DNA of 64,000 bases from an uncultured Gemmatimonadales bacterium (GTDB lineage Bacteria; Gemmatimonadota; Gemmatimonadetes; Longimicrobiales; RSA9): the NCBI GenBank assembly GCA_963798085.1, contig CAWCRS010000003.1, forward strand, positions 896,001-960,000, in the 5' to 3' direction. Position numbers: made by a program. Each line of letters begins with the position of its first letter. The first letter of the stretch is position 1. Positions 18,001 through 24,000 of the stretch are shown in pieces.

Positions 18001-21000
18001 ATTCCGGGTGCGGGCACCGTGCGCTTCGAGGAAGGCGAGACGATCCGCACGGAGATCAGCTGCAAGTACACCCGGCGCAGCCTGGAGCGGAATGTTCGCC
18101 GCGGTGCGGCCTGGAGCTGGAGAGCTGGACCACGGACGCGGCCGGCTGGTATGCCCTGGCGACGGCGAAGGTACGCGCGTGACACGCGGGCCCGTCCTTG
18201 ATCTCGCGGGTGTGACCCGCAGCATCGCCGCGGCGAGTTTCGGCGCCGCGCTGCGGCTGCGGGCGCCAGGCGCATGGGCATCGAGGCCGAGCTGATCCCG
18301 CTGGATGCGACGACGCATCGTGTTGCACCGCTCGCGCAGCGCGTGCTGCCGGTGGTGCAGCGATTCGCGAAGGCGGCGGGCTGGGAAGTCTCGCCATCGG
18401 CCAAGGGTGCGCCGAAGCTGCTGGTGCCGGGGGGCGGCAGTCTCACGTTCGAGCCCGGCGGCCAGATCGAGTATGCGACGCCGCCCGTCACGTCGCCGTC
18501 CGTTCTCCTGCGACACGCGCGCGCCGTGCTCGCACCGCTGGTGGGGTTCGCCGCCGACGCGGGCATCGAGCTGCTGGGGGCAGGCCTCGATCCGTACAAC
18601 GGCATCGAGGCGGTGCCGCTGCAGATCGAGGCGGACCGCTACCGCTGCATGGATGCGTATTTCGCGAGCATTGGCCGCGCGGGTGCGCGCATGATGCGGC
18701 AGACCGCATCGATCCAGATCAACGTCGACCCGGGCGAGGATGCGGCGCTCACCTGGCGCGTGCTCAACGCCGCTTCGCCCGTGCTGACCGCAATGTTCGC
18801 AAACTCGCGGCGCTACGCAGGCGCTGACACGGGGTATGCGAGCTACCGCGCGCAAACGTGGCGCGAGCTGGATCCGTCGCGGACCGGGCTGGCATGGCGG
18901 GAAGGCGATGCGGTGAGCGGCTACGTGGATTTCGCGCTCGGTGCCGCGGCCATGTTCGTGCGGTCGGAGGATGGCGCGTATCTTCCCTTCCGCGAATGGG
19001 TGGCGCGAGGCGCAGCCACGGCCGAGAGCACGGCCGCGCATATGACCACGCTGTTTCCCGATGTGCGGGCGCGCGGCTATTTCGAGGTACGTGCGATCGA
19101 TGCGCTGCCGCTGGAGTGGTACGCCTCACCTGTGCTGCTCCTGGCAGGGCTGGCGCTCGATGCGCGTGCGACGCGCGAAGCGGCCGAGCTGCTGGGAGCA
19201 CCGGATGCTTCCCTGCCGGCGGTGGCCGCGACGCGAGGCATGCGAGACGACACCATGGCGGTCACGGCGGCGACGCTCGTTGACATTGCGCTGGCGGGCT
19301 GCAGCAGACTGGGCGAGCTCTGCAGTGACCAAGACATAGAGCTGGCGGCTGACTGGTTCGCGCGCTTCACGCGTCGCGGGCGTTCCCCCGCGGACGAGCC
19401 GGCGCCGGCCAGCATTGCGAGCGCCGCGTAACACACACCGGTCCGGGTGCACGAACTTCTCAAGGCACTGATCCTGGGCGTGGTCGAGGGCGTGACGGAG
19501 TTCATTCCCGTCTCGTCCACGGGCCATCTCATCATTGCGGGCCACTGGCTGGGCTTCGAAGGCGATTTCGAGACGCTCTTCGAGATCTTCATCCAGCTGG
19601 GCGCGATCCTGGCGATCGTGTGGCTCTATCGCGCGAAGCTGTTCGGCGCGCTATTCAACGCTGCCCCATTGAAGGTGTCTTCGGAGGAACATTGGCGTTC
19701 GCAACCGGCCGCGCGGCGCCTGATCGTGAACCTCATCGTCGCGTTCATTCCTGCCGCCGCTGTGGGCTTCCTGATCCACCACTGGATCGAGGACCACCTG
19801 TTCAGCACGGCCACCGTGGCGGGCGCGCTGCTGGTCGGCGGCGTGGGCATTCTCGCTGTGGAGAAGTGGAAACCGGCCGCGCGCGTGGCCACCGTCGACG
19901 ACATACCCACGCGCTCGGCACTGGGTGTGGGACTGGCGCAGGTGCTCTCGCTGTTTCCCGGCGTCTCGCGCTCCGCCGCGACGATCATGGGCGGAATGGC
20001 GATCGGCCTGTCGCGCGAAGCCGCGACCGAGTTCTCCTTCTTCGTTGCCGTGCCCATCATGTTCGCCGCGACACTCTTCGAGCTGGTCAGCAAGCGCGCG
20101 CTGCTATCCGGAGCGAATGTGCCTGTGCTCGCGGTGGGCTTCGTCACCGCATTCCTGTCCGCAGCAGTGGTGGTGAAGGCATTCGTGCGGTATGTGGCGG
20201 GGCACAGTTTTGCGGTGTTTGCGTGGTACCGGATTCTGCTCGGGGCGCTCCTCCTGGTTCTGTTGTATTTCCTGCCGCGTTGAACGGCGTTGCCCCAGCC
20301 CGAGCCCCAGCAACGCGGTCCCCAACCTACTTGGAACCCCGACGTGTCCAGACGAGGATGACGCCGCAATCCGTCCGACTCTTGTACTGGATGGGGATGT
20401 TGGCGCCGACGTAGATCTCCATGCCTTCCATGGTGGCGGGGCGGACGACGTCGAAGTTGGTGTTATCACCGGACACGCCATCGATGTAGAGCATGGGCGT
20501 GCAGCCCTGGTTGCGATTGATGAAGACGCGGCGGACGCCGGCGCCGCCGTAGTCGATCTTGATGCCGGGCTGATCATAGAGCAGGTCGGTCAGCTCCTGC
20601 GGGTTCTTGTGTTCGATGTAGGCGCGGTCCATGAAGCGTGCCTGTCTGCCGTACTCGGTGCGCCGGTCGTAGAAGCCAACCGACTGGAGCTTGGCGGAGC
20701 GCACGGTCACTTCAATGGGTGGCAGCTCGAGGGGTTTGGTGGAGAGCTGCACCTCGGTTTCCTGCAGTTCGCGCGGCTGGATGCGCACAGGCGCGGAGCG
20801 ACTCTCGTAGCCGATCAGCTCGACCTCGAGCAGCTGCAGGCCCGAGGGCACATCCTTGAGCGAGAACTCGCCGTTGTTGTCCGTGATGGCATTGAGTTGC
20901 GTGTCCTTGATGGAAACGCGCGCACCGGCGAGTGGTTTCTTCGCGTTGTGGTCGACCACAGTGCCGATCAGCTGGCCGGGCGGGTCCTGCGCGCGCGCGG

Positions 21001-24000
21001 GCATGGCGAGGCAGAAAAAGGCGAGTGGGCCCAGGATGATTCGGGCGACGCGGCCGGCGTGGGCGGTGTGGGCGGTGTGGGCGGTGTGGGCGACGAACGT
21101 TCGCGAGTGCATTGGGAAACCTCCAGCAGCTTCGAGCAGATCGGATTCGGTGCAATGTACACCCCGCGGGGCGGGCATGGTTCGCGGGGCTGCGAGCTTC
21201 CGTTGGTGCGGCGGGTGTCAGATAGCCCTGCGTAAGGACCGGCCCGGTGCTTCGCAACCCTTTAGCCCAGCGTCAGGAAAGGCCCACTGCTCATGACCTG
21301 CCGGTGTCGTGGTAGTTGCGGCGCCCGAGGCTCGCTGGTCACTCATGCTCTGGCAATCTGGAGGCATGGCCGGGGGGCCCCTGAGCCCGTGGGAAAAGTG
21401 TGGCTGCGAAGCCGTGCCGATGGGGGCTGAGCTACGTCTGGCTCACGGCGTGACTGCGCCTCCTCGAGCGCGTGGCCATATCTCATTGCACGACATACGT
21501 CTCGGCTGGCGGTGCGGCACGCTGGAGGAACGGTGGCGCTGGCGAGGCCAGGCCGAGCGAAAGCCTGCGCCTGCGCGCTACGCCTCGACTGACGACGGCG
21601 GATCGAGAAGTGCCTCCAGGCGGAGGCGGATCCGGTTCAGCGTGCGACGCGCTTCGAGATCGGTGGGGAGGAGATCCCAGGCCTGACTGGCCTGCTCCCG
21701 GACCCAGATCAGCTCTTCCCGAATGGTCTGCACCTCCCGAAGCAGACCCTGCACATCGACCACGACATGCCCCTTCTGCGTCAACTCGGTGACGGAGGCG
21801 AGGCCACGACGGGTGTCTACGTTCTGCGGCATTACGAGAATCCTGCGCGTCATTGGCGGCCAACCTGTCACGGTTTTCTTGTCCGGGGGTCTAACGACAA
21901 TGTTAGAGGCCCTGCTCAATTCCGAGTCTCGCGCGGGGCGGGTCCGTTTGTGTCGGGGATTCCTCGCCAGATCTGTGAGGCATCGCACCAGAGCGGCCGG
22001 GGGACGACACCGGCTGGCGTTGGCGCACGCCCGTGCGGGGCTGCTGCGAAGCATCGCGGCGACCATCCGGCGGCACTGCGTTGTTCAGGGTCCCGCGGGC
22101 GCTCGCTGGCACCACGCGGTTGGCCGACTGCCGCGCCGCGCTTCAGGCGGCGTCGACCAGCTGACGAACCAGGTCCGCGTTGGTATCCGTGCGCTTCATG
22201 CGCGTGAGCAGGATGTTCATGGCATCGTGCGCGGGCAGCCCTGACAATTCGCGGCGCAACGCGTGCGAGGCGCGCAGCATGCCTTCATTCAGCAGCAGCT
22301 CCTCGCGGCGAGTGGCGCTGGCGTTGAGGTCGATGGCCGGGAAGATGCGACGGTCCGCCAGCTCGCGGCTCAGCACCAGCTCGCTGTTGCCCGTGCCCTT
22401 GAACTCCTCGAAGATCACGTCATCCATGCGCGAGCCCGTGTCGACCAGCGCGGTGGCGATGATGGTGAGCGCGCCGCCGCCCTGCGTCGGATCAATGTTG
22501 CGCGCACTGCCCAGAAAGCGCTTCGGCTTCTCCAGTGAATTCGCGTCCAGTCCGCCGGTCAGCGTCTTGCCACTGCCACGCTCGACCGTGTTGTAGGCGC
22601 GGGCAAGGCGGGTGATGGAGTCGAGGATCACGACCACATCGCGACCCATCTCGACGCGGCGGCGCGCGCGCTCGAGCGTGATCTCGGCGACCGCGACGTG
22701 ACGCTCGGCCGGATGGTCGAAGCTGGATGCGATGACTTCACCGAATCCGCACATCTCCATCTCGGTCACTTCTTCCGGACGCTCATCCACGAGCAGAATG
22801 AAGAGCGCGCAGTCCGGGTAGTTTTTCACCACGCCTTCCGCGACCGACTGCAGCACCGTGGTCTTACCGGCCTTGGAAGGCGAGACGATCATGGCGCGCT
22901 GGCCGCGGCCGAACGGGCACAGCAGATCGATCACGCGATTCGTGAAGTCAGGCTGGTTGCGACGCTTGATGCCGCATTCGAGCACGATCTGCTGATTGGG
23001 GTGCTGCGCGCTGAGGCGATTGAAGTCGGGGCGGCGGCCGATCTGCTCGGGCGGCAGCCCGTTGAGCAGATCCACGCTGGTGAGGGGTGGATTCTTGCCG
23101 CGTCCCGGCGATGGACCCGCTTCGCCTTGCAATTCGTCACCGGCACGCAGGCCGTAACGCTGAACAATGCGGGGCGGCACATACACATCGCCATCCATGG
23201 GCAGGTAACTCGCCTCACGTGAGCGCAGGAACCCCGCGCCACCCGACGTAAGGTCGAGCACGCCGAATGCAGGTCGGCTACTCAATCCGTTTTCTTCCGA
23301 TTCTGTTCTACGGGATCACTCGCGATGCGCACGTACTCACACGCGTGCACCGCACCAGCATCATGCGGGGTGCAAACCGAGGGCCGCTGTCGTAACACGC
23401 ATCAGAACACGAATGTTCCACCGCTGCGCGTGCTGCGCGGTGACACCCGGCACTGCAACGCGGGTGTACCAGCATTTGCGTTGCAGGCATCCGTAAGTCT
23501 TCGGAGAACGCGCAGTTCGAGCATCGCGCGAGCATGTGTGCACGTTTTGTGAACCGGCTCTACCGTCCCGGTTTCCGCGCGCCTCACACCAAGCACGAAC
23601 CGTCTGCGTATCCATCCTTGAGCGCATCCGTCCGCAATGCGACCTTCCTGCGCGACGGGCCTCACGGTTCGTCACCCCTCGCCGCCGCAGCCTCTTGCGC
23701 ACGTTGGACCCCCAGGCTGCGGCGGCACCCCTCCTCTTCGCGACCGTCCGCACACTCGTGTTTCCGATCGGGTCGCGCTCTCTGCTGAAAAGCGTTGCTG
23801 GTTTCTGGGGCTGGGGCTGGTTGCTGGGGTAACGGATCCTGCTGCTGATCCGCACCCGGTTGCCCAACACCGCATGCTGCTCGGCGGGACTGCTGCTGGG
23901 CTGACCCAGAAACGTTGCGAGTCAAGGCGGGTTGGGCTGCGAACAGCCGTGTTCCACGCTGGCCCGCGTGACCGGGAAAGCGGCCGGATCGTTGGATTCC

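Follow-up and report, generated by a model that had tools for sequence, protein, structure and literature searches.

Barrel-less NTE-plug proteins of Gemmatimonadota that retain a TonB-box-like strand: possible periplasmic clients of TonB

Why would a bacterium keep an exported protein built like the front end of a TonB-dependent transporter, with no barrel behind it? The question is raised by P0001, a gene at 20327..21112 on the minus strand (as are all features given below) of the window, the 64,000-nucleotide stretch of an uncultured Gemmatimonadales genome analyzed here. Translation of the open reading frame and a Pfam scan give a 261-aa product composed of a signal peptide, an N-terminal extension (NTE), a TonB-box-like strand and a plug, which ends in WTRRGSK immediately before the stop codon. 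No barrel family, PF00593 included, was detected in the Pfam scan, and the SusC/RagA family TIGR04056 scored 52.4 bits against a cut-off of 368.25. In NCBIfam, none of the members scanned reached the cut-off of any family, and the membrane tails described below matched no sorting-signal model.

The Sec-type signal peptide (residues 1-41; 20990..21112), read from the sequence and the homologue alignment, has a probable cleavage site between A-R-A and Q and lacks a lipobox. The NTE (residues 46-124; 20741..20977) is a carboxypeptidase-regulatory-like, transthyretin-like beta-sandwich of the SusC/Oar type (PF13715/PF13620), identified by PF13715 at residues 50-130 (E 4e-18) and by its fold, which matches the NTE of SusC 9hfj with Z 12.6 and rmsd 1.7 over 80 aligned positions. 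The TonB-box-like strand (residues 126-137; 20702..20737) is placed by a box matrix, the predicted TonB interface and the position of the box in SusC. The plug-fold domain (residues 138-258; 20339..20701) forms the C-terminus; PF07715 matches residues 161-238 with 27.7 bits (cut-off 23.9), and the fold aligns with the SusC 6z9a plug (Z 10.3, rmsd 2.9, 104 aligned). Between box and plug lies GFYxR (residues 146-150; 20663..20677), which comparison of relatives with full receptors marks as family-specific. Cys204 (20501..20503), aligned with BtuB S74, and its presumed disulfide partner Cys249 (20366..20368), aligned with BtuB G124, are invariant in all 34 sequences of the homologue alignment, as the genome-wide survey's note had stated, and occur in 150 and 149 of the 150 best relatives, respectively. 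The AlphaFold model (pLDDT 86.4) agrees with the value of 87 given in that note, and Foldseek again matched the plugs of FepA, Cir and BtuB and the NTEs of SusC, adding the plug of TbpA. A promoter and terminator scan at the gene gave no signal exceeding chance, and a sequencing-run look-up listed no RNA run and a single DNA run, which contained 0.22 of the sequence words.

P0001 is not the product of a frameshift, nor is it part of a split receptor. Its close homologues comprise 24 proteins of 239-265 aa, the number and lengths given earlier, and one fragment of 180 aa. The 150 best relatives, out of 6847 clusters, were gathered with a profile that spans the TonB box; 114 of them end at the plug, as do 86 of the 95 family genes located in GTDB loci, and in neither set does any member extend more than 200 residues past it. 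No co-oriented barrel gene lies directly downstream of any of these 95 genes (79 loci), and the seven barrel matches, in 6/79 loci, are all upstream or on the opposite strand, a frequency that a rough estimate puts near chance. C-terminal tails and domains together occur in 36/150 of the best relatives, a hydrophobic, membrane-type tail in 27/150. The survey's caveat that longer homologues had not been searched can now be answered: long members, of up to 1126 aa, are extended N-terminally by extra NTE and LolA-like domains and have no barrel. A word search for homologues of 458-2000 aa gave 68 candidates, none significant, which is weak evidence because long members were found by another search. 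The family almost certainly consists of intact, barrel-free genes.

Within this genome, an iterated profile search identified 43 plug domains, 24 in full receptors and 19 in 18 barrel-less frames. The latter correspond to 15 NTE+plug genes (16 domains), an M56-peptidase fusion, a putative lipoprotein of 134 aa and a frameshifted ordinary receptor. The paralogue family had been put at about 13 genes, a figure that was slightly low given the 15 found. Nine members had been reported to end within 10 residues of the plug; measured from the profile end used here, the C-terminus lies within 10 residues in 7/15 and within 15 in three more. The statement that most members carry a Cys pair that full receptors lack holds: the first Cys is present in 16/16 barrel-less NTE+plug domains and the second (CG) in 12/16, the other four having a different pair, and neither occurs in any of the 24 full receptors. 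Also upheld was the claim that no barrel gene follows a member, since none of the 15 genes has a same-strand PF00593 match just downstream, one contig ending 1 kb past its gene. In a quick plug tree the barrel-less genes do not form a single clade but split into a CG-type clade of 11 genes, apart from all 24 full receptors (SH-aLRT 99), and a separate group of four. Five further, more divergent paralogues have a plug-like domain with no box directly before it; they had no PDB match, and a search with one query did not detect the group in 60 other genomes, three of them unpublished (G070, G073, G078) and used for no other result here.

The earlier reading of an intact, Cys-stabilized, barrel-less paralogue family, for which no mechanism had been proposed, is thus supported. 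What is added here is that the TonB box is retained and one barrel-binding arginine mostly lost, that some members end in membrane tails, and that there is a second, divergent group. This bacterium, like many Gemmatimonadota, has more than 12 intact genes for exported box-and-plug proteins without a membrane channel. Every part is a known domain, and plug-only entries already stand in databases under generic names; a cluster look-up of 10 relatives returned such names only, with no taxa. All named relatives found here belong to Gemmatimonadota, and another class of the phylum gave matches in 8/13 genomes, all weak (E 8e-10 or worse). Among viral contigs, 46 pattern matches included none that was related, and the single plasmid match, a weak one, was to an annotated Parabacteroides receptor. 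Gene neighbourhoods showed no recurrent neighbour except among close relatives and gave no clue to a substrate. As the survey had also reported, our literature search, which covered main texts and few subscription papers, found no description of a barrel-less NTE-box-plug family.

The action of TonB boxes is established for outer-membrane barrels and for the bacteriocins that hijack them. With a matrix trained solely on the 24 full receptors of this genome, 111 of the 140 NTEs located before a plug in the 150 best relatives were followed by a box scoring 6 bits or more (a proportion inflated because the profile collecting the relatives includes the box), as were 9 of the 15 located before a LolA-like domain. 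No such score followed any of the 39 NTEs that precede another NTE or the five others, and 4.3% of random windows reached it; the contrast between NTEs preceding a plug and those preceding an NTE is new here. P0063, another paralogue of this genome, scores poorly for the box (-15.6). P0001 itself, judged only by its sequence and a model, shows the box-before-plug order of a TBDT, at the same position as in SusC, whose box lies between NTE and plug according to PMC7782687. AlphaFold assigns the box strand no stable place in the sheet.

The genome contains eight TonB_C matches, and the partner chosen for modelling was the TonB domain whose gene adjoins exbB/exbD-like genes. The predicted P0001:TonB complex scored 0.82, against 0.00 for the best of three controls, in a benchmark whose mark was reached by 116/157 solved pairs and 2/215 mismatched pairs. 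Runs agreed in at least 85% of contacts, the partner had a pLDDT of 85-86, and the predicted interface (residues 125-140 and 162) places TonB on the box strand. The model resembles the solved BtuB:TonB complex and therefore shows likeness, not binding. The barrel-less NTE-box-plug proteins probably bind TonB in the cell.

In FepA, R75 and R126 are the site-2 plug arginines, which bind barrel glutamates. With the columns mapped by the 51-residue spacing in a FepA homologue, the R126-equivalent column holds Arg in 30/150 best relatives, whereas 22/24 full receptors have a basic residue there; an R75-like Arg is retained at or adjacent to its place in 130/150. The pair of site-2 arginines is therefore incomplete, the second being mostly lost. 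The P0001 plug matches by profile the force-gated luminal domains of E. coli BtuB and FepA (E 8e-6 and 3e-5). In BtuB, the plug has a weak subdomain (23-73) and a strong one (73-136) (PMC5413942), and the weak and strong halves map to residues 138-203 and 204-258 of P0001. With Cys204 at BtuB 74 and Cys249 at BtuB 124 in the alignment, the Cys pair brackets the mechanically strong half, which is held by the barrel in BtuB and FepA and by the presumed disulfide in P0001, where there is no channel.

P0001 shares with SusC/RagA and Oar-type transporters, such as B. thetaiotaomicron BT1763, the domain order, both folds and a box between NTE and plug, and the strand pairing with TonB is predicted for it as well. 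Unlike them, its family lacks the 22-strand barrel and the aromatic C-terminal residue, has mostly lost the R126 equivalent, and has GFYxR, the Cys pair, an optional membrane tail and extra NTE and LolA-like domains.

Our best reading, held tentatively, is that these proteins are periplasmic TonB clients that are remodelled on engagement, a function that we infer. Their origin would be the NTE, TonB box and plug that open a SusC/Oar-type transporter, and Sec would export them. The C-terminal domain of TonB would pair a strand with the box, as modelled, and a Cys204-Cys249 disulfide may hold the C-terminal half of the plug in place of barrel support. Residues 138-203, the plug half that follows the box and includes GFYxR and variable loops, might bind a ligand or partner, and their remodelling by TonB could release cargo or send a signal, with a membrane tail or bound partner as counter-anchor; the differing loops of the paralogues would correspond to different ligands. 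Against this stands the lack of an anchor in the 114/150 best relatives that stop at the plug, since a free protein cannot be pulled open by TonB, and an inner-membrane tail would share its membrane with TonB. The widely kept R75-like Arg, the poor box of P0063 and the unconserved neighbourhoods count against it too.

The missing anchor fits a module independent of TonB, in which the freed plug would serve the envelope as a stable domain, either structural or ligand-binding, and the strand that resembles a box would be kept for folding or for another partner; we consider this unlikely. It would accommodate the M56/BlaR1-like protein, whose plug is presumed to be the sensor part, and the 134-aa putative lipoprotein, neither of which has an NTE, as well as the five paralogues without a preceding box, and the complex score may reflect memory of solved structures. 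Such a module would not account for a box restricted to NTEs with a plug or LolA-like domain behind them, for its unstable place in the sheet, or for a predicted complex with TonB precisely on that strand.

A decoy or buffer would not require an anchor either: a permanently exposed box, as the predicted complex allows, could park or titrate particular TonB paralogues and tune uptake by the true receptors, several TonB domains being shared among 24 of them. This is unlikely, in that a decoy needs the box alone, yet 85-100% of the 150 best relatives also conserve GFYxR (135/150, against 0/24 full receptors), P240, Y234, W255 and the Cys pair; titration alone also poorly explains at least 15 divergent copies and the LolA-like fusions.

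In split or exchangeable receptors, the proteins would be plugs supplied by genes of their own to outer-membrane barrels that lack one. The kept box and R75-like Arg agree with this, and a surrounding barrel would make the pull of TonB mechanically sensible. This reading is improbable: a downstream barrel gene was never seen in the 15 genes or the 79 loci, the barrel frames without a Pfam plug inspected in this genome were either frameshifted or Oar-type receptors that carry an NTE themselves, the R126 equivalent is mostly gone, and the C-terminal tails and domains would hang at the start of the barrel. Frameshifted receptors do occur in this assembly, but pseudogenes or assembly frameshifts are refuted by the conserved stop position (in the 24 homologues, the clusters and the GTDB loci alike), the gained invariant residues and the CG-type clade of the quick tree, and have practically no likelihood.

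Returning to the periplasmic clients, these findings suggest that the TonB motor has unrecognized partners in the periplasm. A bolder proposal, which we consider unlikely, is that the TonB-ExbBD motor of Gemmatimonadota drives many periplasmic clients without a barrel, the box standing in front of either a LolA-like carrier or a plug stapled by a disulfide; proton-motive force would then open envelope proteins that hold ligands or lipids and would gate no channel. A family that spans thousands of clusters and has kept the box but discarded the channel would widen the role of the motor. Many "TonB-dependent receptor" annotations in Gemmatimonadota do not denote transporters (15 barrel-less against 24 full here), and a natural, soluble, stapled plug would be a test object for the two-subdomain gating model.

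The middle domain of long members (pLDDT 87) has LolA-like proteins as its eight best fold matches (Z 5.9-8.8), among them the DUF1329 protein 4z48 (Z 8.8, rmsd 4.2, 173 aligned), 3bk5 (Z 8.4, rmsd 4.1, 174 aligned) and P. gingivalis LolA3 (Z 7.9, rmsd 4.0, 168 aligned). Unlike LolA and LolB, to which it is only 6-12% identical with middling Z, it is preceded in the same chain by an NTE and a box-like strand. ESM Atlas leads for this domain were all below 0.9, one being DUF5686.

Barrel-less "TonB-dependent receptor plug domain-containing proteins" occur in Bacteroidota, with the plug at or near the C-terminus and some fused to M56; the family resembles these, and this genome has one M56 fusion. 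F. johnsoniae BamP is likewise a two-domain periplasmic protein with several paralogues and works with a barrel in trans. Its C-terminal domain consists of three helices, a long loop enters BamA, and a plug is not described in the available text (PMC12611786); identity with BamP was rejected on that description, the C-terminal domain of P0001 being a plug fold.

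The minus-strand ORF at window 20327-21112 encodes P0001, a 261-residue product with a signal-like N-terminus (up to A-R-A↓Q, by inspection of the sequence), an NTE (residues 50-130, PF13715) and a plug (residues 161-238, PF07715, above cut-off), with the stop codon three residues past WTRR. Its AlphaFold model shows two confident domains (pLDDT 86.4, pTM 0.56). In structure comparisons, the NTE matched that of SusC 9hfj (Z 12.6, rmsd 1.7, 80 aligned) and the plug that of SusC 6z9a (Z 10.3, rmsd 2.9, 104 aligned); Foldseek matches also include FepA, Cir, BtuB and TbpA. The family resembles the N-terminal part of a SusC/Oar-type transporter. 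The homologues of P0001 that carry names belong to Longimicrobiales or Gemmatimonadota. The gene is flanked by a convergent bacA/uppP and, upstream, by a Rho-like gene; a Rho-like gene likewise precedes the closest GTDB orthologue. The one in the window (22143-23285, minus strand; 380 aa) has RNA-binding and ATPase domains without a match to the Rho N-terminal domain, and is possibly a short paralogue. A 9-base tandem repeat (window 21059-21091) encodes (Thr-Ala-His)x3 in the N-region of the P0001 signal peptide and is missing from homologues.

Searched with an iterated profile, the source genome yielded 43 plug domains: full receptors account for 24, and the other 19 are spread over 18 barrel-less frames. 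Three of these frames were excluded: at C1:184409 an ordinary receptor with a frameshift, at C9:39385 a fusion to an M56 peptidase, and at C8:100009 a putative lipoprotein of 134 aa. The remaining family comprises 15 NTE+plug genes, which together encode 16 plug domains; this bears out the family described in the genome-wide survey's note and slightly raises its count of about 13. The short ends it reported also stand, with different numbers: rather than nine genes, seven stop within 10 residues of where the profile ends and three more within 15, while two continue for ~25 and three for 113-159. As it had stated, no barrel follows these genes; none of the 15 has a barrel match immediately downstream.

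A search with a profile built from these 16 plug domains retrieved 6847 clusters at E 1e-10 or better, and the best 150 were examined, about seven of which appear to be the source genome's own proteins. Most frequent among the 150 are the layouts NTE-plug (92), NTE-NTE-plug (17) and plug-only or partial (16). GTDB contains 446 stretches that code for a relative; among the best 79 loci, 78 are titled Gemmatimonadota and one uncultured bacterium. Family genes, 95 in total after exclusion of five weaker matches (two of them full receptors), were called in 76 of these loci, 14 of which hold two to four copies. No conserved neighbourhood surrounds them in the 79 loci, and the seven barrel matches, in six loci, never lie downstream on the same strand. 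Of 43 other genomes from the class of the source genome, 27 contain family matches (1-13 per genome, counts that are lower bounds, with a few long-frame matches taken as found); at E 1e-12, none of the 17 genomes drawn from other classes does. The barrel-less family is real, widespread within one class and made of known domains.

These proteins fall outside the TBDT family: they have no barrel, the second Arg is mostly lost and the curated score stays below its cut-off. A published survey of TBDT architectures demanded both plug and barrel, which left barrel-less plug proteins out (PMC6434023). The accessible part of the lipocone paper refers to outer-membrane operons with Plug domains, does not describe this family, and cites a title according to which the isolated TbpA plug keeps its structure (PMC12419801). 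BamP was rejected as an identity, as its description differs (PMC12611786). Clusters with the generic name "plug domain-containing" are present in the ESM Atlas, most of them from Gemmatimonadota. Barrel-less plugs probably also occur in Bacteroidota. Our literature search, which covered neither subscription papers nor supplements that may bear on the matter, found no description of the family, which is uncharacterised as far as searched.

FepA needs R75 and R126 for transport, and each is paired with a glutamate of the barrel (PMC12940499). We mapped the two arginines to the IRG and RGP motifs through their 51-residue spacing. Among the full receptors, 23/24 have IRG and 22/24 are basic at the second site; among the best 150 relatives, 130 have Arg at or adjoining the first site and 30 at the second, so the barrel lock is half rather than wholly lost. 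The GFYxR motif between box and plug occurs in 135/150 relatives versus 0/24 receptors. Consistent with the earlier claim that full receptors lack the Cys pair, the first Cys is found in 150/150 relatives and the second in 149/150, versus 0/24 receptors for each. Four paralogues of the source genome without the second Cys carry another upstream, indicating that Cys residues occur in pairs, as would be expected of disulfides outside the cytoplasm. C204 and C249 of P0001 align with BtuB S74 and G124. TonB unfolds BtuB residues 23-73 and 73-136 stay folded (PMC5413942); the two Cys therefore enclose most of the strong half, which the presumed C204-C249 disulfide would span, leaving the TonB-opened half free. 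In a quick tree, 12 own domains with the second Cys in CG cluster with 30 sampled relatives in a clade that excludes all 24 receptors (SH-aLRT 99). The remaining four barrel-less own genes fall into another group, so the barrel may have been lost more than once.

In SusC BT1763, the TonB box follows the NTE and is required for growth on levan (PMC7782687). A scoring matrix derived from the 24 full-receptor boxes (positive at 6 bits or more) was positive after 111/140 NTEs preceding a plug, a figure biased by the inclusion of the box in the collecting profile. It was also positive after 9/15 NTEs preceding a LolA-like middle domain, 0/39 preceding another NTE and 0/5 others, compared with 4.3% of random windows; the box therefore goes with the domain after it rather than with the NTE. 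P0001 residues 118-261 were modelled with the TonB domain encoded beside genes that, from their sequences, resemble exbB/exbD. The predicted complex scored 0.82 (best control 0.00), passing a mark reached by 116/157 solved and 2/215 mismatched pairs, with at least 85% of contacts agreeing between runs and a partner pLDDT of 85-86. P0001 residues 128-135 are predicted to pair with the last strand of TonB; because a BtuB:TonB structure is already solved, the model speaks for likeness rather than binding.

We tentatively read family members as periplasmic TonB clients, with chances a little short of even. Beyond box retention and the modelled contact we infer the steps: TonB would bind the box, the disulfide-stapled plug half would remain folded, and the half behind the box would carry a ligand or partner and be remodelled. 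This client reading is weakest in that three quarters of members lack any anchor against which TonB could pull. A binding module working independently of TonB is rather unlikely, set beside the retained box; a decoy for TonB, with which box and modelled contact would also agree, is unlikely as well. A plug for an unlinked barrel, with the first lock Arg mostly kept and the second mostly lost, is quite improbable. Frameshifted receptors in this assembly make an artefact check matter, and an artefact is practically negligible, given that the same short end recurs in 24 close homologues of P0001 (239-265 aa, the length from which the note had rightly argued against a frameshift), in 114 of the best 150 of 6847 clusters (11-40 residues after the last plug in 30, 41-200 in 6, >200 in none) and in 86/95 GTDB-locus genes (<=10 residues; >200 in 0/95).

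Apparent frameshifts split a tonB gene beside exbB/exbD (L094:864-1737) and several full receptors, suggesting indel errors in the assembly; split genes lie at C1:184484, C5:837219, C5:4496, C12:30437 and C7:1811654.

The 230-residue middle domain occurs in 18 of the best 150 relatives; its model (pLDDT 87) best matches LolA-like proteins, with middling Z (8.8, 8.4, 7.9). It follows NTE and box, with a conserved Cys pair, in five genes (L002, L003, L004, G000 C8:80578-81546), two of which (C10:136749 and C8:80578) have no plug. Among the best 150, 27 end in W-basic-basic plus ~15 hydrophobic residues, usually then Arg, and in five a small domain has a hydrophobic hairpin rich in Gly. At L006:3854-6220, a GWxTD-domain gene (TIGR04514) lies directly upstream of a paralogue with a C-terminal membrane tail.

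Five further genes in the source genome encode NTE-box-NTE and then a divergent plug-like domain without a Pfam match, ending in a Cys: C5:772521-773585, C5:651297-652277, C7:142454-143413, C7:492355-493314 (= L003:6356-7312) and the frameshifted C8:114121-115333. The profile of this domain matched the family at 90.9% probability (TonB control 0.9%); one query found no match in 60 other genomes of the class. At L012:4979-7254 (C9:38978-41256), a repressor gene, which we take to be BlaI-like, precedes an M56/BlaR1-like peptidase fused to a plug, presumed to be a periplasmic sensor. The 134-aa putative lipoprotein (L014:6010-6411) is a shortened plug alone, and similar small genes adjoin family genes in L076, L084 and L088.

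Elsewhere in the window, plus-strand genes at 9391-12188, presumably dnaA- and dnaN-like, indicate that a replication origin is probably near. Those at 16141-19431 (+) resemble what we assume to be an ergothioneine-type cluster, with an ABC transporter pair nearby (13354-15719), next to which a methyltransferase-like gene (17216-18182) is apparently split across two frames. A convergent pair, assigned from motifs and taken here as a TIR-like domain membrane protein (27137-29134, +) and a TIR/NB-ARC/TPR-like protein (29234-32197, -), represents possible defence genes.
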